DNA of 59,253 nt, counting the filler, from Candidatus Coatesbacteria bacterium (GTDB lineage Bacteria; JAFGND01), in assembly GCA_016927185.1 (NCBI GenBank). It is 3 parts of 3 records of this genome, joined end to end, with 100 filler letters (N's around TTAATTAATTAA, not from the genome) between each part and the next. Parts side by side here need not be neighbours in the genome. Positions count along the whole stretch, not along the records: positions 48,628 to 59,253 come from JAFGND010000054.1; 2 more parts are not named here. One strand, written 5' to 3'. Position numbers and translations under genes: made by a program. Positions 31,294 through 59,253 of the stretch are shown in pieces. Under the pieces are notes generated by a model, which ran no database searches, was not told the origin of the DNA, and saw only the letters and a program-made list of their open reading frames with translations. Position 1 is the stretch's first letter. Each line of letters starts with the position of its first letter.

Positions 31294-31393
31294 NNNNNNN
31301 NNNNNNNNNNNNNNNNNNNNNNNNNNNNNNNNNNNNNTTAATTAATTAANNNNNNNNNNNNNNNNNNNNNNNNNNNNNNNNNNNNNNNNNNNN
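31294..31393. other. Artificial contig-joining spacer
   Basis: N44-TTAATTAATTAA-N44; the 12-mer puts stop codons in all six frames. Confidence 0.97.
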
Positions 31394-48527: not shown

Positions 48528-48627
48528 NNNNNNNNNNNNNNNNNNNNNNNNNNNNNNNNNNNNNNNNNNNNTTAATTAATTAANNNNNNNNNNNNNNNNN
48601 NNNNNNNNNNNNNNNNNNNNNNNNNNN
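48528..48627. other. Artificial contig-joining spacer
   Basis: N44-TTAATTAATTAA-N44, identical to 31294-31393. Confidence 0.97.
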
Positions 48628-48873
48628 AGTATATAACGTACTATCTGCAGAGATTACAGCTGATACATCTTGAAAATAATATGGATTTCCTAAATTATTC
48701 TTTTTACTCTCTTTTCCAACAGTCTTAAACCTATATTCCCACAAAAAATTAGGATCCCTGGGACCTATTAATGGAGATAATCCATCCTGCCTGTAATTGC
48801 TTCTCCAATCTGACCAGAAATGTTCTCCATAAAGTACCGAAAATCCCACCAAAATCATTATAAAGATACGCAT
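48628..48873 (-). CDS. 5' fragment of a secreted (probable PQQ-like beta-propeller) protein, cut by the contig end
   Basis: AAGGAGCATAGA-ATG; MRIFIMILVGFSVLYGEHFWSDWRSNYRQDGLSPLIGPRDPNFLWE...; paralog of 31087-31293. Confidence 0.72.
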
Positions 48874-48893
48874 TCTATGCTCCTTTGCTATCG

Positions 48894-50444
48894 CTACCTT
48901 ATCTTCACCACCCTCTTGCATTCCTTCCCAGACTTCACAATATAAACTCCCTCTCTCCATTTGCTGGTGTCAATAGAGTGTTTGCCTTGGGGAAGGTTCA
49001 TGATTAGCTGACCTGTAAGGGAATAGACTGCTCCTGAGGATGGAAGAGAAATCGTAAGTCTGTCAGTGAATGGATTGGGATTGGCGGAAAAAGATTTGGC
49101 TGGAATATATGATGCTGATTTGTTATCTTTGAAACCATATCTCTCTGCTATTGTAAATGTGCTGTCACTTGTATCAGTTGCATTACCTTTTACATCATCT
49201 ATTCTTACAAGACAGTCTTCTGAAGGAGTGTCTGGAATTGTCCATGAATATTTTCCTTCATTAGCTGACATCTTTACTATCTCTGTCCATAAACTTCCAC
49301 CATCTGAGGTAAACTTTACAGAAACAGTATCAACATTCAATGATGTCCATGTAATATCATGAACAGAGCTAACATCCCATTCTTCTCCTCCATTGGGAGA
49401 TGATACAGAAATAAAAGCAGAATCTATTGTCTCTATTGCGTACAGGTAAGTATCATCACTACCAATATATACTACATTATTTTTAACACATGGAGATGAA
49501 CTTACCCTATTACCTGTCATATATTTCCAGATCAAATCCCCATTAGATCTGTTTATTGCATAGACGTAATAATCATTACTACCAACGTATACAATCCCAG
49601 CTGAAATACAAGGAGAGGAGAAAATTCTTCCACCTGTCTGATATCTCCATATAAGAGTTCCATCTGAGCAGTTTATTGCATAGAGATAGTAATCATTACT
49701 CCCGACATATACAACTCCGTCAGAAACGCAAGGAGAAGAGTTAACAGTACTACCTGTCTTGTATCTCCATTTAAGAGTTCCGGTTGATTTGTCTATTGCA
49801 TAAAGATAATCATCATTACTTCCAATATAAACTGTACTTTCTGAGATAAAAGGGGAAGACCAGATGTCATAATCTGTTTCATATTTCCATTTAAGAGTTC
49901 CATCTGAGCAGTTTATTGCATAGAGGAAGTGATCAAAGCTACCTACATAAACAATTTCATCTGAAATACAAGGAGAGGAGAAAATACAATCATTTGTCTT
50001 ATATCTCCATTTAAGAGACCCCGATGAGCAGTATATTGCATAAAGATAATTATCATAGCTTCCTACATAGACAACTCCATCAGAAATATAAGGAGTAGAA
50101 TTAACTTCACTTCCAGTTCCATATCTCCATTTTAGAGCCCCATCCAAACTATTTATTGCATAAAGATAATAATCCCAACTTCCTACAAAAATAGTCTCAT
50201 CTTCGAAATCAGGAGAGGAATCAATTGCATAATTTGTTTTATATCTCCATTTAAGAGTCCCATCTGAGCAGTTTATTGCATATAGATAGTAATCCCTACT
50301 TCCTACAAAAACAACCACGTCTGATACGCAAGGAGAGGAGCTAACAAACATCTCTGTTTTATATCTCCATAACAACTCACCGGGTGCTGAAAAAAGCAGA
50401 CTGGATAATGATATCAGAATTATGATGATTATAAGCTTTCTCAT
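48894..50444 (-). CDS. Secreted 8-blade PQQ/BamB-like beta-propeller + PNGGE Ig-like domain + T9SS type A-like C-terminal domain
   Basis: Signal peptide; eight exact 40-aa repeats; SPNGGE...WTIPDTPS domain; tail ANPNPFT...YSLTGQ.I...W.EGVYIVK......VVK. Confidence 0.9.
   Translation of the reverse strand: MRKLIIIIILISLSSLLFSAPGELLWRYKTEMFVSSSPCVSDVVVFVGSRDYYLYAINCSDGTLKWRYKTNYAIDSSPDFEDETIFVGSWDYYLYAINSLDGALKWRYGTGSEVNSTPYISDGVVYVGSYDNYLYAIYCSSGSLKWRYKTNDCIFSSPCISDEIVYVGSFDHFLYAINCSDGTLKWKYETDYDIWSSPFISESTVYIGSNDDYLYAIDKSTGTLKWRYKTGSTVNSSPCVSDGVVYVGSNDYYLYAINCSDGTLIWRYQTGGRIFSSPCISAGIVYVGSNDYYVYAINRSNGDLIWKYMTGNRVSSSPCVKNNVVYIGSDDTYLYAIETIDSAFISVSSPNGGEEWDVSSVHDITWTSLNVDTVSVKFTSDGGSLWTEIVKMSANEGKYSWTIPDTPSEDCLVRIDDVKGNATDTSDSTFTIAERYGFKDNKSASYIPAKSFSANPNPFTDRLTISLPSSGAVYSLTGQLIMNLPQGKHSIDTSKWREGVYIVKSGKECKRVVKIR
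49435..50370. repeat. Eight tandem 120-bp coding repeats (propeller blades)
   Basis: Period of exactly 120 nt, with recurring ATATCTCCAT, GTTTATTGCATA and AGGAGAGGA at constant phase. Confidence 0.92.
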
Positions 50445-50586
50445 AATAGCCTCCCTACTATAACCATGGTCTTCCCTTTCATATATATTTCACTTTAAAA
50501 ATTGGCAGGATTTATAGTCAAGGATTTTCCAAGAATTTTCTAATGGAAGTTAAGACTGATTTATCTTAATAGTTTCTGAAGCTGAT

Positions 50587-50739
50587 TTAACTTGAAGAAT
50601 CAGCACAAACCATCGTTATTTTCCCTCTTCCCAAAAATTCCTCTCTGCAACCTTCATAATCTTTAGCATAATACATATAATCTTCACAGCTGAGTGCAGT
50701 TTTTTCGAATACATATTCAGAAATTATTACTGGCTTCAT
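50587..50739 (-). CDS. Small Cys/Tyr-rich peptide, candidate RiPP precursor (below the ORF-track cutoff)
   Basis: Hand translation: MKPVIISEYVFEKTALSCEDYMYYAKDYEGCREEFLGRGKITMVCADSSS*. In-frame upstream codons give EKKKQY. AAGGAG at 50757-50762. Confidence 0.6.
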   Translation of the reverse strand: MKPVIISEYVFEKTALSCEDYMYYAKDYEGCREEFLGRGKITMVCADSSS

Positions 50740-50790
50740 ATATTGTTTCTTTTTTTCTCCTTCAATTATGAGAATCTGTAAATGCTCTTG

Positions 50791-51108
50791 TTAATCAATC
50801 AGTCCTTTGTCTATAAGTTTCTTGAGCAGAGAATATATATCATGTTTGTCTCCCTGCTTTCTTATTCCGATTGCTATAATATAAACCAAGACTTCTTCGT
50901 TTTCAATCTTATAGATTATCCTGTATCTTTCGTCAGAAACATGAATGCTTCTGAAGCCCTTAAGTTCTCCCAGAAGTGCTTTCCCCCGAAGATCGGGATT
51001 TTCCTTGAGTCCTTCAATTCTTTTCTTTATCTGTCCTGAAATTCTCTTTTCCTTGATTTTTTTAATTGAGTTGAAGGCAGTATTTGTTAAAAGAATTCTA
51101 TAACTCAA
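50791..51108 (-). CDS. Type II toxin, RelE/ParE family
   Basis: Y.I.L...A...IKKI, L.ENP...GK.L.GEL.GFRS.....YRIIY.I......V.IIAIG.R. Confidence 0.9.
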   Translation of the reverse strand: MSYRILLTNTAFNSIKKIKEKRISGQIKKRIEGLKENPDLRGKALLGELKGFRSIHVSDERYRIIYKIENEEVLVYIIAIGIRKQGDKHDIYSLLKKLIDKGLID

Positions 51109-51370
51109 TTTGCTTCACTGCTTCTTCCCAGGAAATCATTTTTTTGTTCTTCAAGTCCCTAATTCCTGCTTTCAACATATTCATCATTTCAGGATCACCC
51201 ATTATATCTATTGTTTCCACCAATGCCTCATACAGTTCATATGGAATTAGAACCATTACAGGCTTTCCTCTTCTTGTTACCTCAATTGTGCCATCAGATC
51301 CCATAACACCTGGAAGAGAAGTTAGGAGTTTTCTTGCTTCAACCATACTCATCTGCTTGATTGTTCTCAT
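51098..51370 (-). CDS. Type II antitoxin, Phd/YefM family
   Basis: S..EAR..L..L, I.VTRRGKPV.VL..YE.YE.L.ET..IM.DP; overlaps the toxin start. Confidence 0.92.
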   Translation of the reverse strand: MRTIKQMSMVEARKLLTSLPGVMGSDGTIEVTRRGKPVMVLIPYELYEALVETIDIMGDPEMMNMLKAGIRDLKNKKMISWEEAVKQIEL

Positions 51371-51386
51371 ATCACCTGCCTTTAAT

Positions 51387-51426
51387 ATTACATTTAACTG
51401 TACATATATATTATAAGTTTGTCAAG
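51387..51426 (-). promoter_or_regulatory. TA operon promoter with YefM-type operator
   Basis: TTGACA-N17-TACAGT on the minus strand. Palindrome TGTACA (51399-51404) overlaps the -10; a degenerate ATTACA lies 12 bp away (51387-51392). Confidence 0.55.
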
Positions 51427-51564
51427 TGAAAAATAAAAGTGAGGTAATCTAGCCCCTATAAATGCCAGATTTAATGAAGATATCTTTATTTTCTTCTTTC
51501 ATGACAAATTTCAAGGGACCTGTTTATTCATATTTTATAGGGCAAGTATCCCATGAATGAATAT

Positions 51565-52377
51565 CTAGTAATGAACTAGTGTTCCTTCCTTCTTTGCATA
51601 TTTGACTGCATAAGAGAAGGAGATAAGCCCCAGCGGAAGGAGAATTACAAGGAATATGGTAAGCACGCTTAGCTCAGGCAATATATCCTGAAATGTTGCC
51701 CTTACAAGCAATGCCTTCCTGAAGCCTTCTATTCCGTATGTTATTGGCAGGATCTTTGAAAAAGGCTGCAACCACAAGGGAAGTACTGCAATTGGATAGA
51801 AAACTCCCCCAAGTAAACCTGAACTTGCTCCCATAAGAAAATCGAGGGGATTCCCTTCCTTGAAAATGAGTATGAAGCTTGCACTTATCATTCCTATTCC
51901 CATGAATGAAAGCAATGTAACAAGAAGTATCAGAAGCCCTGCCAGTAATCCCTCAAGAGAGAAATTCAAATTCATTCCGAACAGGAAATAGCCTGTTAAT
52001 ACGTAAACAAGAACCCTGAAACTTGTGAATCCGAAGTTCCAGAGTGCTGATGAGAAAATTATCAAAGAGAGCGGAGTTCTTGTTACAAGCATTGCCTCAA
52101 GTGTTCCCTGAAGCTGCTCTCTTCTTATAATGCCGGCAAGGGATGACAGACCAACTCCCAGAAAGCTGTTGAATGCCATGCCTACAATTGCGAATGCGAA
52201 ATAATCACCTCTGTATTTTGTCAGGTATTGTGCTGCACCAGTTCCAACCACTTTTGAAATGAAGAAGAAGGTTGCAACTCCGAAGAAAATTCCGAAGAAC
52301 TGTCCGACAAATCCCATTTTGTAGGAAACTGCTTGAAGAGCATCTCTTTTTATGAATGCCCATATCTTACTCAACAT
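51565..52377 (-). CDS. ABC-2 type exporter permease
   Basis: Six TM helices; AF.KRD...SY, E...GTLE.MLVT, G.FYP..VLP.WLQ.....LPITY; AGGAG RBS before ATG 52377. Confidence 0.9.
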   Translation of the reverse strand: MLSKIWAFIKRDALQAVSYKMGFVGQFFGIFFGVATFFFISKVVGTGAAQYLTKYRGDYFAFAIVGMAFNSFLGVGLSSLAGIIRREQLQGTLEAMLVTRTPLSLIIFSSALWNFGFTSFRVLVYVLTGYFLFGMNLNFSLEGLLAGLLILLVTLLSFMGIGMISASFILIFKEGNPLDFLMGASSGLLGGVFYPIAVLPLWLQPFSKILPITYGIEGFRKALLVRATFQDILPELSVLTIFLVILLPLGLISFSYAVKYAKKEGTLVHY

Positions 52378-53347
52378 TTTTCTTCTCCTTGACAAGCCCT
52401 GAAAAAATCTCTTCAAGAGAGAGTGTCTTCTTCTCCATCTCGCATTCAGGAAGCCATTTTGTAATGTCCTTCAGAATGGGGATTATCTCTTCCTCACTCC
52501 CTGCAAACCATTTAAGCAATGGTGGATCCTTCTGGTAGGACGTATTTTCAGGAAGCCTTTCAATGTCATTGCTGTCAAGTTCCTTCTTGAACTTGAATGT
52601 CAACTCAATCCTGCCTCCAAGCCTTGAAGACAGTTCTTTCACGCTTCCCTCTGCAATAAGCTTTCCCTTGTTTATTATTGCAACCTTGTCACTCAATTCC
52701 TCTGCTTCATAAAGATTATGAGTTGCAAGAATTACTGTTTTTCCCTGTTTCTTTATAAGGTCTTCTGTCATGAATTGCCTTATCTGGGAAGAAACCAGAG
52801 GATCAAGACTTCTTGTTGGCTCATCCATTATTATTATTTCAGGCTCATGAAGCAATCCCCTTGCAATGGCAAGCTTCTGTCTCATTCCCGTGGAATATGT
52901 CTGGAACTGTCTGTCAGCTGCTTCAAGCATGCCAAGCATTTCCAGATTCCTGTTTATCCTTTCTCCAAGCTGCCTTCTGTTTATTCCTTGAAGCGAGCCA
53001 TAAAATTCCAGATTCTGCCTTCCAGTAAGCCTCCAGTAAAAGCTTCTTTCATCTGACTGGACAAGACCAATTGCAGCTCTTATCGCAGCTCCATCCTTGT
53101 AAATGGAGAAATTGTTCACGAAAACCTCACCGAAATCAGGCAGTATGAGTGTAGAAACTATCTTGAGAAGTGTAGTTTTACCAGCACCATTTGGACCAAG
53201 CAGAGAATACAGTTTCCCCTTTTCAATGTGACCAGTAATTCCAAGCAATGCCTCAACTTTCTCTCTCCTTCTGAATGGATGCAGTACAGTTTCCTTCAAG
53301 GTTTTTGCCTTGTGGAATGTCTTTTTTACGTTTTCGAACCTTATCAT
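52367..53347 (-). CDS. ABC exporter ATP-binding protein
   Basis: GPNGAGKTT, ERSFYWRLTGRQNL, YSTGMRQKL, MDEPT, ATH. Confidence 0.93.
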   Translation of the reverse strand: MIRFENVKKTFHKAKTLKETVLHPFRRREKVEALLGITGHIEKGKLYSLLGPNGAGKTTLLKIVSTLILPDFGEVFVNNFSIYKDGAAIRAAIGLVQSDERSFYWRLTGRQNLEFYGSLQGINRRQLGERINRNLEMLGMLEAADRQFQTYSTGMRQKLAIARGLLHEPEIIIMDEPTRSLDPLVSSQIRQFMTEDLIKKQGKTVILATHNLYEAEELSDKVAIINKGKLIAEGSVKELSSRLGGRIELTFKFKKELDSNDIERLPENTSYQKDPPLLKWFAGSEEEIIPILKDITKWLPECEMEKKTLSLEEIFSGLVKEKKNVE

Positions 53348-54441
53348 TTGAGTATTCTCAGCAATTCCTTTCTTATTATTAGATCTGACTCAGGGAGATT
53401 AATATTCCCCATTCTCTTTCTCATATCTTCCAATATTTTCGTATCTCTTTTTATTTCAAGAAGATATCCCTTCAGATCACCAGGCTTTAACCAGCCATCC
53501 ACTATTCCATTTTTCTTCAGGAAGTGAACATTGCCTTCCTCGTGACCAGGAATTGGTGGAAGAAGTACAAGAGGTGTTTTTATTGTCAATGCCTCAGTTA
53601 TTGTTACTCCACCTGGCTTGGTTATGTAAAAATCACATGCCTCTATGTAATCTGCTGAATTCTCTATCATTGGCAGAATAATTACATTACTTCCATCATT
53701 ATCCTTACTCAGTTTTTTATACAGCTTCTTGTTTGAACCGCAGAAGACAACAACTTTTATTTCAAGCTCTTCAAGAAGTCTTGTTACCTTTGCAAGAGGT
53801 CCTAATCCAAGTCCACCACCTCCGACAAGTGCATAAAGGCTATCTTCTTGCATTCCAAGGGATTTCCGAAGAAGTAATTTTCCAACTGGATTTCTGAATC
53901 GTGGAGATACAGGAATTCCACTAACTACACAGTTTCTGAAATCCCTCTTCTCGAATTCCTCTTTAATTTCTTCAGTTGAAACAAATGCAAGTGGCTGTGC
54001 AGGATGAAGCCAGTGGCTGTGAAATTCATAATTCATTACAAGAGTTGCCCACTTGTATTTTTCGGGAAGAAATGAGCATACTGCTGCAGGAACAGGATGC
54101 GTTGGGATTGCAAGATCTATTTTTTCCTTATCCAACAAAGGTATCAGGTATTTCTCAGCCCTTTTCCTGTAGGACGCAGCAAATTGACCAGACCATTTCT
54201 GTTTCTCTCTTTCCTTCCTGTAGAGGTTCCTGTATAATTGTGGGAAGTGACGCAATATGAAGAGATAGATGGACTTTATTATGCTGCTTGTGGTTTTCCC
54301 GAGATACTGCTCTGCTGAAATAATTGTGCAGTCAGCTTCGTCCTGCATCGAACTGGCAATCACCCTCGATACGCTCAAATGCGCCCTTCCATAAGGCACA
54401 CTCAGGAATGCTATTCTTTTCTTAGCAGAATTGCCTTCCAA
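53344..54441 (-). CDS. MGDG synthase/UgtP-like glycosyltransferase
   Basis: YGRAH, THP.P, H..W, SGIPV, GGGLGLG, TKPGG.T.TEA, PIPGHE.GN. Confidence 0.82.
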   Translation of the reverse strand: MEGNSAKKRIAFLSVPYGRAHLSVSRVIASSMQDEADCTIISAEQYLGKTTSSIIKSIYLFILRHFPQLYRNLYRKEREKQKWSGQFAASYRKRAEKYLIPLLDKEKIDLAIPTHPVPAAVCSFLPEKYKWATLVMNYEFHSHWLHPAQPLAFVSTEEIKEEFEKRDFRNCVVSGIPVSPRFRNPVGKLLLRKSLGMQEDSLYALVGGGGLGLGPLAKVTRLLEELEIKVVVFCGSNKKLYKKLSKDNDGSNVIILPMIENSADYIEACDFYITKPGGVTITEALTIKTPLVLLPPIPGHEEGNVHFLKKNGIVDGWLKPGDLKGYLLEIKRDTKILEDMRKRMGNINLPESDLIIRKELLRILK

Positions 54442-55709
54442 TAATCCATCCTCTCCTTGATTTTCTTCTCTACTCCGCTGTCAGCAGGTACATAATATAT
54501 CCCTGGTTCCATGTTTTCAGGAAAATGCTGCTGGTTTACGATACCCTCATCTATATGGGGAGCATATTGATAGCCTTCCCCGTATCCAAGATTCTTCATA
54601 AGTCCAGTCGGGGCATTCCTTATCACTTTCGGAACAGGCAGCTCGCTTGTCTCCTGAGCATGAGTAGTAGCCTTTGACCATGCTTCATAAGTCCTGTTGC
54701 TCTTTGGAGCGGAACCAAGGTAAATTACTGTCATGGCAAGAGCAATATCACCTTCCGGACTTCCAAGAAACCTGTATGTCTCAAGAGAATTAATTGCTAT
54801 CTGAAGAGCATTAGGATCAGCAAGACCTATGTCCTCTATTGCAAAACGTATAAGTCTCCTTAGAACATAAAGCGGACTTTCTCCTGAGATTATCATTCTT
54901 GCACACCAGTATAATGAAGCCTGCACATCGCTGTCCCTCAATGACTTATGAAGGGCTGATATCTGGTTGTAATGCTCCTCCCTGTCCTTGTCATAAACAG
55001 CTGTCTTTCTTGACATTGCCTGCTGGACATGAGAAATTTCTATATTCTTGTTGCCGAACAATGAAAGAACAGTTTCAATCTGCCGCAATGCTATCCTTGC
55101 ATCACCAGAAGATAAATCAGCAATGTACTTCTTTACTTCATCCTTGAATGAATATTCCTGCTTGAGTATTTTCAAGGCTCTGTCAATTATCTGCATAATC
55201 TCGGAAGGATTCAGCTGTTCAAGCACGTAAATCTGTACTCTTGAAATCAAAGCCCTGTTCAGGTAAAAGCTTGGGTTTTCTGTAGTTGCACCGATGAAAG
55301 TTATGGTGCCATTCTCTATATGCGGGAGAAAGGCATCCTGCTGAGTCTTGTTGAAATGATGTATCTCATCAACAAACAATATGGTTCCCTTGCCCTGACG
55401 ATTAAGATATTTGGCTTTTTCTATTACAAGTTTCACATCTTTTATTCCACTTGAAACAGCAGAAAAAGCCTCCCAGTTCTTTGATGAATACCTTGAAATT
55501 ATATATGCAATAGTTGTCTTGCCGCATCCGGGAGGTCCCCATAGAACACACGAAGGAACATTATCTTCCTCTATCTGCTTTTTCAATACCCCTTCAGCAC
55601 CTAACAGATGATCCTGCCCGACTACTTCGGAAAGAAGTTTGGGTCTTATTCTTGCTGCAAGAGGAAGGTCTTCCCTTGACTTGCCTTCAAACAAATCTGG
55701 TGCATTCAT
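54411..55709 (-). CDS. rarA: Replication-associated recombination protein A (MgsA)
   Basis: PLAARIRP, WGPPGCGKTT, DEIHHFNKTQQD, GATTENPSF, SALHKS.R, EDIGLADP, RNAPT.LMK.LGYG. Confidence 0.95.
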   Translation of the reverse strand: MNAPDLFEGKSREDLPLAARIRPKLLSEVVGQDHLLGAEGVLKKQIEEDNVPSCVLWGPPGCGKTTIAYIISRYSSKNWEAFSAVSSGIKDVKLVIEKAKYLNRQGKGTILFVDEIHHFNKTQQDAFLPHIENGTITFIGATTENPSFYLNRALISRVQIYVLEQLNPSEIMQIIDRALKILKQEYSFKDEVKKYIADLSSGDARIALRQIETVLSLFGNKNIEISHVQQAMSRKTAVYDKDREEHYNQISALHKSLRDSDVQASLYWCARMIISGESPLYVLRRLIRFAIEDIGLADPNALQIAINSLETYRFLGSPEGDIALAMTVIYLGSAPKSNRTYEAWSKATTHAQETSELPVPKVIRNAPTGLMKNLGYGEGYQYAPHIDEGIVNQQHFPENMEPGIYYVPADSGVEKKIKERMDYWKAILLRKE

Positions 55710-55831
55710 GCAGGAAAGAGGGAGATAGAGAGTTTTTTTGGTCAAGCATAAAGCTTATTGCAGAAGTCAACTGCTTGCCTGAAAGCATCTTCATGAACAA
55801 GTTATTTCTCAATCCTGAAAAACAAGTCTTT

Positions 55832-56287
55832 CTATTTCCCGTAAGTATATTTGAAGAAATCAGGATCAAATGCAATTGCAGCAAGCCATTTATCTCCGAA
55901 TATTACTCCAATCCATGTCTCTCCGCGCTTCCAGTATGCACTTGTCAAGGTAACTTCCTCAGGCTCACCAAGTTCTTCCCTGAACAAATTGTATATCTTG
56001 ACTGTTGTTGTCAAGTCAGCATTCTTTGCATACATGTACATTGCACCTATCTTGTACTGCTTGTTCTTGTCCAGGAAAACTGCAACTCTCCTGTATGGAA
56101 CTTCATGATCAGTTATATCTACAGCACAGAAATAGAATTCCTTGTTCTCGCTTTCCTCAAGGCTGGGATATTTCTGCTGTGCAATGGCAAGTGTTTCCCC
56201 AATCTTGACTCCGAAAATATCTGCTATGCTTGTAGCCGAAAAAAGGCATGCAGAAGTCAGCAAGATAAAGAATATGACTTTATTCAT
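55832..56287 (-). CDS. Hypothetical secreted protein
   Basis: GAGGTG RBS, signal peptide, FG.K.G.T...A motif; no family assigned. Confidence 0.65.
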   Translation of the reverse strand: MNKVIFFILLTSACLFSATSIADIFGVKIGETLAIAQQKYPSLEESENKEFYFCAVDITDHEVPYRRVAVFLDKNKQYKIGAMYMYAKNADLTTTVKIYNLFREELGEPEEVTLTSAYWKRGETWIGVIFGDKWLAAIAFDPDFFKYTYGK

Positions 56288-56342
56288 TTGCACCTCTCTT
56301 TATATTTTGTTTAACCAAAAAGGCAATTTTATTCTACATTAT

Positions 56343-57014
56343 TTATATACGGTCAGTTTTTACTTGAATCTCGTTTTTATCTTTGTCAATTGCCTGCATG
56401 GAGAAAATATCCTTTGCAATGTAACCTATTTTCCTGCAAGCATATGCGTCAATACCTCCAGAAATAACACTTCCTGCTACAGGTATTATCTTGCTCATGC
56501 TTGCTATGCTTTTCTCTCCTGTCTTTGCAACAAGCCTGTATCCAACTTTCTTGTTTATCTCAATCAAGACACTTGATGGCGTCCTGATTAATATCTGCGT
56601 TAATGTCCTGTTTGTGATTTTCACCCCTGCGTTTTTTAATATTTTCTTTATATCATCACCCTGAAGGCATAATATTAAAAGGGTCTTTACGCTATCCTCC
56701 CTTATATCATGACCGTAAATTATCGCAATTGCTCCAACCATTCTTGCCTGAATAAGCCATGCAGCTGCAAGGGATCCTGGAACACTTAATGGAATGGTAA
56801 TCAATCCACCCAGTCCTGTAAGGAAACCTGTGGTGAAATTCTTTGATGCTTCCCACTTTATAAGCGATTTCACCCTTCTGTCATTATCAGCAAATTTCTC
56901 ATTCTTAATATATCTTGAAGCGAGTTTTTCTGCTGAGCTTAATGGAGGGAATCCGTTTATTGAATGATGGGTAATCCACTCAAGAAGTTTTAGGGTTCTG
57001 CTTTGCTTTTCCAT
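56343..57014 (-). CDS. EcsC family protein
   Basis: TTGFLTGLGGLIT.P..VP, Q.RM..AIA..YG.D, INKKVG.RL..K.G.K....K.IP..G..I.G..D. Confidence 0.88.
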   Translation of the reverse strand: MEKQSRTLKLLEWITHHSINGFPPLSSAEKLASRYIKNEKFADNDRRVKSLIKWEASKNFTTGFLTGLGGLITIPLSVPGSLAAAWLIQARMVGAIAIIYGHDIREDSVKTLLILCLQGDDIKKILKNAGVKITNRTLTQILIRTPSSVLIEINKKVGYRLVAKTGEKSIASMSKIIPVAGSVISGGIDAYACRKIGYIAKDIFSMQAIDKDKNEIQVKTDRI

Positions 57015-57079
57015 ATGCTTTCTATAAACTCCCGACTTCTTGAATCAAATCTGTAATAACTGTCATGAAAGGTTTTCAC

Positions 57080-59011
57080 TCAGGGCATGTATAGTATCTT
57101 TCCTGAAGCAACATTCTTTCCGAACACAATTTTGTAGTAATAAACTCCAGCACTTCTTCTTTCAAGTATTCTCCTTGCCGGGATTGCCAATCTTGAAAAG
57201 TCCCTGTCTGATTTTATTTTTAGCGGTTTGCCAATATGTCTTCCTGACACATCGTAAAATACAATATAACCAGTGTTTTCAGGAATATTCTTCTTTCTTA
57301 TCACAAGAGTCAATTCATTCCTGACAGGATTGGGACAGGAAGACAGAATTGTCAGAACAGGTTTTCTGACAGATTTCATGCTTCCCTTTCTCTTCAGGTC
57401 ATTCACCGTAATTGAAAGCCTGTATGAAGGAATTTTGCCTATTGCAATTGATATCCTGTCTATCGATAATCCTGATTCAGCAAGCTGTGAGAAAGAATCA
57501 TTATACCAGTTGGAATTGGGATTGGTAGATGCATTGAAAACAGGGGAAGGATGGGTTATCTGGAAGAAGTGGGGGCATCCATATGACCATTGCCAGTAAG
57601 GATGTTCTCCATTTTCCCATATTGAGCCATACAATACTCCACCTACTGAAAGCGAATCAGTGAGGGATCTGAACCAGAAATCCAGATCATCATAACCGCT
57701 TGCTGGATTTGGTTGTCTGTCACTCATGAAGGGAGGTTTGTCCCACATGCCATTTGCACATTCTATATCAACTATCTTGTGATGTTCATTGTTCATGTCA
57801 CCACCAAGCTCATCAACATGATAAATAGTGATACCACCTTGCTTCATATCATCTGTATATTCCTCTAAAGGTAGAGGATATCTCTGATGATATAAATCAG
57901 GAACATATCCATGCTTCTTGCCCAGTTTAAGCTCTATAAGGAAATATTCACATTCATTACCAGGTCTTGTGAATTTAAGAACCGAAGGAGTTTCTCTAGA
58001 ATCTATGGGATATATTATATATTCTCCTGATTCTGTTATCTCTCTTATATCACTCCCTTTTTTCCAGCCAAGCTTGCATAAACTGAATGCAGAAAGAGGT
58101 CCAGGTACTCTATGAATATCTGATGCATCAGCAAATGGACATTGTGTATGGCACATTATATCCCATTTTCCAATTCCAGCATTATCAGTCCCGAAATAGC
58201 CTTCTGTTATATTAAATCCGCTAGTATACAAATCCTCAAGCCCGAGATAATGACAGAATTCATGCATCATGCGATGAGACATAATGGACATCACATTTTC
58301 CTCTTCATTGTTGTCTTCACAGTAATTATGTTCTATATAAACCACTGCAGATCTGTCAGGATCTATTGTTACGCTGTCCCGTTCGTGCTGGAAACCCATG
58401 TGAGATGGATAATATCCTGAACCTTCATTAGGATCCTTGCAATCTGTTGTTGCTATTATGAAAATGAAACCTACTTTCGCTGTATCATTTTCCACTGTTG
58501 CAAATTTCCTGTAATCAACAACTCTGTCTACTTCATCCCAGAACTTCACATAATCAGGTTTTCCCTGTTGCCATCCTCTTGAATATGCAGTGAAAAACTG
58601 GTTGAAAAGGACAATTTCTCCCCTTATATGGTACTTGTCAAAAGAGAGTTTTGATGCATAATCGCTTAAACTCCTGAAAGGATAGCTTAGTTTCATTGGA
58701 ACCAGTTTCTTGTAAATACAAGAACATCTATCCTCAAAGCTGTTATCACCTTCCCTGAGATTGATTCCCCAGCCAAGAATCCTGCTGAATTTCTTGACAT
58801 TCTTGTGGGGAGTCGGCACGCCCAGACTATTATTTGAATAAACAAGTATACCAACAGCTTTTATTGTATCAATTGTTGTTTGTGCATCTTTAAGATTATG
58901 GTTACCATATGGATATATATCCATATCCGGCAGGGCAGAAAGCATTTCAGGAAAGACTGCTGCAATAATCAGTAAAATCTTCATGCTGCAAAGCACTTTT
59001 CTGTTATTCAT
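57080..59011 (-). CDS. Secreted M6 (immune inhibitor A-like) zinc metalloprotease with T9SS-like C-terminal domain
   Basis: HEFCHYLGLEDLY, GIGKWDIM, P..LSAF....LGW, EYFLIE, G..IYHVDE; tail PNP.....YDVSGR...SAGVYYY.......K. Confidence 0.85.
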   Translation of the reverse strand: MNNRKVLCSMKILLIIAAVFPEMLSALPDMDIYPYGNHNLKDAQTTIDTIKAVGILVYSNNSLGVPTPHKNVKKFSRILGWGINLREGDNSFEDRCSCIYKKLVPMKLSYPFRSLSDYASKLSFDKYHIRGEIVLFNQFFTAYSRGWQQGKPDYVKFWDEVDRVVDYRKFATVENDTAKVGFIFIIATTDCKDPNEGSGYYPSHMGFQHERDSVTIDPDRSAVVYIEHNYCEDNNEEENVMSIMSHRMMHEFCHYLGLEDLYTSGFNITEGYFGTDNAGIGKWDIMCHTQCPFADASDIHRVPGPLSAFSLCKLGWKKGSDIREITESGEYIIYPIDSRETPSVLKFTRPGNECEYFLIELKLGKKHGYVPDLYHQRYPLPLEEYTDDMKQGGITIYHVDELGGDMNNEHHKIVDIECANGMWDKPPFMSDRQPNPASGYDDLDFWFRSLTDSLSVGGVLYGSIWENGEHPYWQWSYGCPHFFQITHPSPVFNASTNPNSNWYNDSFSQLAESGLSIDRISIAIGKIPSYRLSITVNDLKRKGSMKSVRKPVLTILSSCPNPVRNELTLVIRKKNIPENTGYIVFYDVSGRHIGKPLKIKSDRDFSRLAIPARRILERRSAGVYYYKIVFGKNVASGKILYMP

Positions 59012-59239
59012 TCAATCTACTCCTTGCTAAACTGTTCCATTATAAATAAAAGCATTAAATATTGTCAAGATTTCTTTGTCTATATAATGTAACAGATACG
59101 GAATTCTTGATTACAGATCTATAGAATAGTTGTTTATAAACTCAAAGATAGCTTATTGAATTTGATGGGGATTCTTCTTGACTAAAAAAACTGAATCCTT
59201 CCAATGTTGAAATAACAAGAAGAAAATGGAGGTAAATGT

Positions 59240-59253
59240 ATGAAAGCGTTGAT
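59240..59253 (+). CDS. Start of a gene running off the window
   Basis: GGAGGT RBS, ATG AAA GCG TTG, and an upstream CTTGAC at 59177. Confidence 0.45.

Follow-up and report, generated by a model that had tools for sequence, protein, structure and literature searches.

A small-peptide family with a RiPP-type leader in a Candidatus Coatesbacteria genome: probable precursors of a radical SAM/SPASM system

We analysed a 59,253-nt stretch of DNA (the window) from Candidatus Coatesbacteria bacterium (assembly GCA_016927185.1), in which a 50-aa open reading frame (ORF) lies on the minus strand at 50587..50739 (ATG at 50739, stop at 50587–50589). This ORF almost certainly belongs to a real, conserved small-gene family, which has 11 copies in the genome. 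The family is under purifying selection and has a leader in common with peptides of other core types, encoded inside clusters for peptides that are made by ribosomes and modified after translation (RiPPs). A cassette of the same kind of maturation genes is present in the genome itself. Probably, the family members are precursors of a radical S-adenosylmethionine (SAM)/SPASM RiPP system that depends on a RiPP recognition element (RRE). A preliminary description of the window had interpreted the ORF as a modified-peptide precursor, an interpretation supported by the sequence comparisons presented here.

A conserved small-gene family

The ORF has Cys at residues 18, 31 and 45, four Tyr after Cys18 and SSS at its end. 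These features, as well as the open minus-strand frame in an intergenic gap, were as previously described, according to the ORF list and the sequence. Directly upstream and in frame, at 50740..50751 (minus strand), the codons for K-K-Q-Y correspond to family residues 1–4 (M-K-x-Y), as judged from the paralogue alignment and the upstream DNA. Counted in family residues, the leader-like part (residues 1–21; 50689..50751, minus strand) carries Y4, P7, I9, S11, E12, E16 and L20 (leader alignment A4). The core-like part (residues 22–54; 50590..50688, minus strand) has the invariant C22, Y28, C35, G41, G43, K44 and C49 (alignment A2) and the C-terminal Ser.

Searching with the peptide by tblastn, we found ten further copies in its own genome (G000; 2.99 Mb, 109 contigs), with E values from 1e-21 to 3e-9. 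They were located on contigs C16, C18 (two), C100, C6 (three in tandem), C106 (two) and C70, giving eight loci when the window copy on C90 is included. Nine of the ten are intact, for example the canonical copy at C18:31181-31345, and in the tenth (C106:35487-35650, locus L013) an A run contains a one-base frameshift. The leader of the broken copy (YMKPVIISE) is the one most similar to that of the window copy. A profile built from 10 copies recovered the window copy at E 1.5e-30. The family consensus is MKxYxKPEIISExVFEKTALxCEDYxYYxKxYEGCRDEYLGRGKxxxxCAxTxS, with 14 invariant columns across the ten intact copies and a C-terminal Ser in nine of them. In all nine other intact copies, GGAG or AGGGG precedes the ATG by 4–8 nt. 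The proportion of nonsynonymous differences (pN) was lower than that of synonymous differences (pS) in 45/45 paralogue pairs, and the ratio of nonsynonymous to synonymous rates (dN/dS) was 0.15–0.61 in the 22 pairs with unsaturated dS.

Members outside G000 are very rare. Of 308 candidates that a profile search drew from 5.77 billion proteins, 15 were matches, nine from the own genome and six foreign, all functionally unnamed. A HMMER pass over 1.84 billion representatives gave 19 matches at E ≤ 0.001. Thirteen of these were peptides of 53–74 aa aligned end to end, and two (P0028 and P0030) aligned in their N-terminal part only. The remaining four were long proteins matching only in short repeated stretches; P0027 was inspected and found unrelated, and the other three were not inspected. 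Among 24 aligned members (A2), P7, E16, L20, C22, Y28, C35, G41, G43, K44 and C49 were invariant. The family was absent from 40 other genomes searched by profile, one of which (G014) gave a partial match (E 4e-4). Searches with alignment A1 found no relatives in genome contigs or metagenome contigs, and those with A3 none in genome contigs and three loci in metagenome contigs. G000 is the sole species of its phylum among 199,900 species genomes, and all 400 genomes used for comparison are related to it at the domain level only. No Pfam or NCBIfam family matched the peptide, even at E 1–10, and the ESM Atlas returned only unnamed clusters, with scores of 0.84–0.85, under the lead threshold.

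One foreign member (L034:472-2357) has an N-terminal extension; immediately before it, on a metagenome contig of 3.4 kb, is a DnaB-type helicase-like ORF. This contig may be a mobile element; the helicase label comes from reading the sequence, with no family scan behind it.

A short frame in an AT-rich intergenic gap, without family annotation, could have been a chance ORF or what is left of some larger, known protein after decay. This explanation is refuted by the eleven paralogues, the foreign homologues (to E 1e-23) and the purifying selection (pN < pS). All full-length matches are proteins of 53–74 aa, and ten further tblastn matches lie in G000.

A leader shared with cluster-encoded precursors

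The leader, MKxYxKPxIxSExVFEKTALxC, comprises the first 22 residues and matches the leaders of peptides with different cores inside RiPP-type clusters. In the leader alignment A4 (15 sequences, 22 positions), Y4, P7, S11, E12, E16, L20 and C22 are invariant. A leader-only profile (A4) run over the 400 other genomes had matches at E ≤ 0.05 in 16 genomes. At E ≤ 1e-3 there were nine loci in 6/400 genomes, namely G014, G080, G323 (two), G169 (three), G318 and G164, with E values from 3e-10 to 8e-4 (2.8e-10 for G014 and 8.7e-9 for G080). Behind the common ...FE(K/T)(T/S/A)AL-x-C, the leader-bearing peptides carry at least five unrelated core types. They have a Cys 5–9 residues from the end and, in 13 of 14, a C-terminal Ser (Thr in L034).

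Several of these peptides are encoded next to maturation genes. The metagenome contig L035 encodes an HPr-kinase-like P-loop protein, a PqqD, a radical SAM/SPASM enzyme, two 62-aa peptides, a 180-aa protein, a fusion of an S26-like domain with NTP_transf_5, and an ABC exporter. G014 has a PqqD, a radical SAM/SPASM gene, a 49-aa precursor and an S24-like peptidase. In G323:C326 and G169:C207 a radical SAM/SPASM gene is directly upstream of the leader-bearing peptide, in G164 and G318 an HprK-like protein and an NTP_transf_5 gene are within 1.3 kb of it, and in G272 (A4 E 0.0035) an HprK-like protein and a PqqD are directly upstream. The peptide of G080 adjoins only an NrdG-type activase, probably unrelated, and no maturase gene was found near those of G323:C53, G169:C105 and G169:C4. 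Thus, five of the nine foreign leader loci are clustered and three to four are orphans, with one clustered and two orphan copies in G169 and one of each in G323. Orphan copies beside a clustered copy are the same pattern as in G000.

The preliminary description had likened the leader to those of radical SAM/SPASM plus PqqD clusters, and we found the same leader on precursors in L035, G014, G323, G169, G164, G318 and G272. Its test for this was whether multiple small ORFs would combine a conserved leader with variable Cys-rich cores and have radical SAM/SPASM, PqqD, peptidase or nucleotidyltransferase genes nearby. The 11 copies and the leader agree with this, and such gene neighbourhoods were found in other genomes and in L035; the cores vary only across the wider class.

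PMC10368454 gives YxxPxL as the B1/RRE recognition motif of lasso leaders. Applied to the family, Y4, P7 and I9 would place position +1 at residue 21–22, where conservation across the core types stops.

A maturation cassette on two contigs

The profile search of the genome contigs gave no PqqD or SPASM matches on C75, C83 and C90, the three contigs of the window. The ORF would be an orphan or dispersed precursor, as had been proposed. RRE and radical SAM genes are present in the genome, as a cassette on C107 (locus L019) and C50 (L061).

On C107, an NTP_transf_5 nucleotidyltransferase gene (C107:3280-4440, E 2e-30) is followed by the gene of a 222-aa HPr-kinase-like P-loop protein (C107:4506-5174), homologous to the HprK-like proteins of L035, L041, L042 and L043. 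When aligned by hhalign with the HprK-like proteins of the other clusters, this protein had a probability of 98.6% (E 1e-15). A PqqD gene (C107:5171-5449, E 3e-17) and a radical SAM/SPASM gene (C107:5436-6302) come next, the latter cut by the contig end. Its continuation appears to be at C50:2-214. C50 opens with a frame whose C-x2-C-x5-C-x3-C aligns to the last SPASM cysteines, just past the break in C107, and this SPASM tail matches ScmF positions 293–340 (E 1.2e-4). After the tail, C50 encodes a 66-aa precursor with seven Cys, which begins with MKEKYSKPQII and ends in Thr, then an S24/S26-like peptidase (C50:382-741) and a Kelch-repeat protein.

From the alignment and the gene order we infer that C107 and C50 form one cassette, with its own precursor. 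The two contig ends do not overlap, and no continuation of C107 was found by end overlaps or by tblastn of radical SAM C-termini against the contig ends. It was eventually located through a weak S24-like match on C50. A six-frame motif scan of G000 found KxYxKPxI together with at least two Cys only in the family and in the 66-aa peptide.

Other candidate genes were rejected. The radical SAM gene on C99 has polysaccharide-type genes around it, and neither a PqqD gene nor a leader-bearing peptide is found there. The contexts of a second NTP_transf_5 gene (C91), and of HprK-like matches on C38 and C11, were not RiPP-like.

A second stand-alone PqqD-like gene (C21:570-872, L063; PF05402, E 2.5e-6) sits between a propeller gene fragment and the gene of a 1246-aa cyclase + AAA_16 + TPR protein. 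An AAA_16/TPR protein similar to this neighbour (1475 aa) is encoded 1 kb upstream of the two C18 copies.

Proposed pathway

In the pathway that we propose, the N-terminal 20–21 residues would serve as the leader, and its Y-x-K-P-x-I motif would be bound by the small PqqD-type chaperone (C107:5171-5449). The chaperone would present the core to the radical SAM/SPASM enzyme (C107:5436-6302 plus C50:2-214), which most likely would form thioether cross-links from the three invariant Cys. This chemistry is suggested by the nearest solved relatives of the radical SAM enzymes, which for L035 are SkfB (E 4e-23), SuiB, CteB and PqqE. The HPr-kinase-like P-loop protein (C107:4506-5174) may phosphorylate the conserved C-terminal Ser, to which the NTP_transf_5 nucleotidyltransferase (C107:3280-4440) would perhaps make a further addition. 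Finally, the S24/S26-like peptidase (C50:382-741) would remove the leader.

According to PMC8498205, the Ser at the C-terminus of lasso precursors is a target of HPr-kinase homologues, which phosphorylate it; the phosphate then receives a hexose from a nucleotidyltransferase that in some cases is fused to the leader protease. The C-terminal Ser, the HprK-like and NTP_transf_5 genes and the S26–NTP_transf_5 fusion of L035 fit such a lasso-type phosphorylation and glycosylation of Ser.

We rate as even the chances that the C107 and C50 cassette matures the dispersed copies in trans. Since the cassette has a precursor encoded in cis, this use of the dispersed copies, beside the 66-aa peptide, is conjectural, and so is each chemical step.

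Several observations weigh against the precursor interpretation, or against this particular cassette as the maturation machinery. Having its own cis precursor, the cassette may not use the family as its substrate, and apart from KYxKPxII and the spacing to the first Cys, the leader of the 66-aa precursor does not agree with that of the family. The C107 radical SAM shares only 29% identity with its counterparts in L035 and G014, to which the one on C99, in its polysaccharide-type neighbourhood, is closer. No PqqD gene is found beside any family copy, whether at the eight loci in G000 or on contigs L033 and L034. Three of the nine foreign leader loci have no maturase nearby, and G080 offers only its NrdG-type activase. 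Among family members, conservation is as high in the core as in the leader, unlike in hypervariable multi-copy RiPP precursors, and the peptide is matched by no Pfam or NCBIfam model. The window copy is without a properly placed start (see below). The predicted complex between PqqD and the peptide gives weak support for their binding: it scored 0.49, compared with 0.23 for the best control, its runs agreed in at least 74% of contacts, and the pLDDT (predicted local distance difference test) of the partners was at least 42. The score mark was reached by 58/80 solved complexes and by 2/110 mismatched pairs, and passes at ≤ 0.60 are more often wrong than right unless the pairing is likely beforehand.

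Some of these points would suit a family of small unmodified Cys-containing proteins that share an N-terminal motif with RiPP leaders without being processed; they might be regulators stabilised by disulfides, immunity factors or binding partners. In favour of this are the conservation over the whole length, including GxGK and the three Cys, the lack of a PqqD gene beside any copy, and the cassette's own precursor. We consider this unlikely, because the 22-residue N-terminus matches the cluster-encoded precursors, even in where the first Cys stands, because the peptide was modelled at pLDDT 42–46, with no hint of a stable fold, and because clustered and orphan copies also occur together in G169 (1 + 2) and G323 (1 + 1).

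Comparison with known systems

The precursor interpretation places the family close to several described systems. The phosphorylated or phosphoglycosylated lasso peptides (paeninodin, pseudomycoidin and Bradymonas BsfA) have in common with the family a Y-x-x-P-x-(L/I) leader for a small PqqD-type RRE. They also have a precursor ending in Ser and, in the cluster, an HPr-kinase homologue and a nucleotidyltransferase; the latter is sometimes fused with the leader protease, B2 in lasso systems and an S26-like domain in L035. Unlike them, the clusters described here have radical SAM/SPASM enzymes and S24/S26-like peptidases, without a B2 transglutaminase-like protease or an Asn-synthetase-like cyclase. 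The core, with 33 aa, is longer than lasso cores, contains three invariant Cys and has no ring-forming acidic residue at positions 7–9.

That the peptides are themselves lasso precursors is therefore highly improbable, even though the leader has the lasso-type YxxPx(L/I) motif, lasso PqqD chaperones are among the best NCBIfam matches of the PqqD proteins, and kinase, nucleotidyltransferase and C-terminal Ser occur in phosphorylated lasso systems. A lasso B2 protease was not found in G000, the best PF13471 match reaching 17.6 bits (cut-off 26) inside a 538-aa frame on C97. No Asn-synthetase-like cyclase was found in the clusters L035, L021 and C107 plus C50. Matches to PF00733 were located on C39, C1, C67, C60, C81 and others, and none on C107, C50 or C90; four full-length Asn_synthase homologues are on other contigs. 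Among the contigs with a peptide gene, only C16 has a PF00733 match, a weak one (C16:13753-13920; 18.2 bits, under the cut-off) at a distance of 18 kb from the peptide. In the 33-residue core, positions 7–9 counted from C22 are Y, x and K (alignment A2), without Asp or Glu, and the conserved Thr is 3–4 residues before the junction, not at −2 as in lasso precursors.

Sactipeptide and ranthipeptide systems (SkfB, CteB, PapB) are alike in having a PqqD-type RRE and a radical SAM/SPASM maturase beside Cys-containing precursors. The PapB, StsB and AlbA models matched weakly, and all NCBIfam matches were far under their cut-offs. Different from these thioether-forming systems, the RRE here stands alone as a protein. 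For sactipeptides or ranthipeptides, the literature searched gave no report of kinase and NTP_transf_5 partners or of a conserved C-terminal Ser.

The SynChlorMet (SCM) and GeoRSP systems defined in NCBIfam/TIGRFAM have the same gene set, of an HPr-kinase-related protein, a PqqD relative and a radical SAM/SPASM enzyme. The SCM models scored 15–44 bits for ScmC (cut-off 125), 32–40 for ScmD (100), 93–110 for ScmE (400) and 22–90 for ScmF (400). Being well below the equivalog cut-offs, these scores indicate relatives of SCM, not members. Going by the model descriptions, we know of no precursor identified for SCM.

The pyrroloquinoline quinone (PQQ) pathway (PqqA, PqqD, PqqE) also combines a small Glu- and Tyr-containing peptide with a PqqD chaperone and a radical SAM/SPASM enzyme. 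The PqqD model (TIGR03859) reached 43 bits with a cut-off of 46, and that of PqqE 59 bits with a cut-off of 381; PqqB and PqqC were not searched for. The propellers encoded near the peptides are of the BamB/PQQ_2 repeat type with a type IX secretion system (T9SS) tail and do not match dehydrogenase models, and their orientation relative to the peptide genes is not conserved. We give very little weight to the idea that the peptides are precursors of a small molecule or ligand acting with the expanded, secreted PQQ-like propellers (~73 regions in 3 Mb). It would combine a PQQ-like logic (a Tyr- and acid-rich peptide, PqqD and a PqqE-like radical SAM/SPASM enzyme) with C-terminal phosphoserine or phosphoglycoserine chemistry.

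Taken together, by its sequence features the system resembles a radical SAM/SPASM RiPP pathway that depends on an RRE and in which the leader is recognised, and the product tailored, in the lasso manner; it appears to fall outside the lasso, SCM, PQQ and mycofactocin systems. We found no literature joining an HPr-kinase-like enzyme with a radical SAM/SPASM RiPP, including in passages of PMC10288494 and PMC7470986; subscription papers and supplements were outside the scope of this search, so an earlier description is possible.

The start codon of the window copy

At 50751–50749 the window copy reads AAG; the corresponding codon is ATG in each of the nine other intact copies. A Shine-Dalgarno-like AAGGAG (50757..50762, minus strand) lies 5 nt before this position, which is the normal spacing, and 17 nt before ATG 50739. 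The preliminary description had noted the latter distance, as well as an A7 run (50756–50750) and a TTG (50765–50763, 26 nt upstream of ATG 50739) that would come into frame with one more A, and all three were seen in the sequence. The codons upstream of ATG 50739 read E-K-K-K-Q-Y in frame. The missing A had been offered as the cause of the ambiguous start. This explanation was not borne out: the anomaly is the AAG where the family, and a related strain, have ATG.

The related strain is represented by Logan contigs of the biogas-fermenter runs X2 and X3 (from another study), which cover 50644–51400 with ~97% identity. Compared with the window, they have T>A at plus-strand position 50750 and one base fewer at 50751, giving an ATG exactly at the family start position. 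The peptide part differs between the window and this strain at 10/96 positions, and the flank at ~11/660. Five of the eight changed codons alter the residue, mostly at variable positions of the family. Between the two strains, the peptide gene is ~10% divergent and the adjacent toxin–antitoxin genes ~1.5%.

As assembled, the window copy would be poorly translated, if at all, or would start five residues late; it is probably a decaying copy or an assembly error. We lean slightly towards the view that it is a pseudogene or an assembly artefact, the family perhaps being functional and this locus giving no product because its start codon is gone. The AAG behind a Shine-Dalgarno site placed for that very position, and the ATG kept at 50751–50749 in the strain of X2 and X3, argue for this. 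So does the next ATG: it is 17 nt from the site, and starting there would give a product without the Tyr of the motif. The frameshift in an A run at C106:35487-35650 indicates that copies decay or that A runs are misassembled. Pointing the other way, the frame shows no other damage, it retains all 10 of the family-wide invariant residues that fall within it, and the in-frame K-K-Q-Y upstream of ATG 50739 is preserved. Further, contigs of the possible source run X1 leave 50707–51150 uncovered, so that the AAG may have arisen in assembly, from a gene that is in reality intact.

Genomic surroundings of the copies

The window consists of C75, C83 and C90, joined artificially by N44-TTAATTAATTAA-N44 spacers at 31294–31393 and 48528–48627. 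Adjacency across the spacers is therefore artificial, and the real context of the ORF is 48628–59253 (C90) alone. The intergenic gap holding the peptide gene is flanked by a ParE/Phd pair on one side and a PQQ-like beta-propeller gene on the other. The two genes of the pair, directly upstream of the peptide gene (50791–51370, minus strand), overlap each other; they encode a ParE-family toxin (105 aa, PF05016, E 9e-11) and a Phd/YefM antitoxin (90 aa, PF02604, E 1e-11). The family scan identified the propeller gene (48894–50444, minus strand) as BamB/PQQ_2-like, with a T9SS tail. Farther upstream on C90 are ABC-2 transporter and glycosyltransferase genes. A scan for promoters and terminators around the ORF gave 8 hits, near the 5.3 ± 2.4 of shuffled sequences.

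Four of the eight peptide loci (C90, C16, C100 and C6) are ~140–155 nt from a PQQ-like propeller gene, in differing orientations. G000 has ~73 PQQ-like (BamB/PQQ_2) propeller regions with T9SS sorting tails, many at contig ends, and by a rough estimate ~4% of random places would be that near to one. C90, C16 and C100 have common flank sequence, so their proximity to propellers is not independent. We treat the nearness of propellers and peptides as an association.

One C106 copy (C106a, C106:9946-10113; L012, 9946-12271) is 66 nt downstream of overlapping genes for a radical SAM/SPASM protein (359 aa) and a family 2 glycosyltransferase (GT2) on the same strand. The GT2 is MftF-like (95 bits), and no PqqD gene is found there. 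This pair was rejected as the maturase of C106a: the genome has 19 SPASM matches, and such adjacency in one of eight loci lies within chance expectation, with a probability of ~0.2 by estimate. Mycofactocin was rejected as well, the GT2 scoring 95 bits against an MftF cut-off of 280 and the mycofactocin radical SAM model not being among the 25 best matches listed. On C6 (C6:1-697, L017), the three tandem copies are downstream of three propeller genes, and 30 nt beyond them begins a P-loop gene that runs off the contig. Its 36-aa fragment matched generic P-loop families only and was not retained as a candidate.

Implications

For annotation, the gain is a small-gene family that is matched by no Pfam or NCBIfam model. 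If the proposed pathway is true, the peptides would belong to an uncharacterised RiPP class, joining lasso-type leader recognition and C-terminal Ser kinase/nucleotidyltransferase tailoring to radical SAM/SPASM cross-linking in place of lasso cyclisation. The class would have several core families across unrelated bacterial lineages (6/400 other genomes sampled), and its members would be candidate substrates for cassettes of the SCM/GeoRSP type. In G000, one cassette would face at least 11 dispersed, conserved precursors, so that maturation in trans would occur in a species that alone represents its phylum among the 199,900 species genomes.

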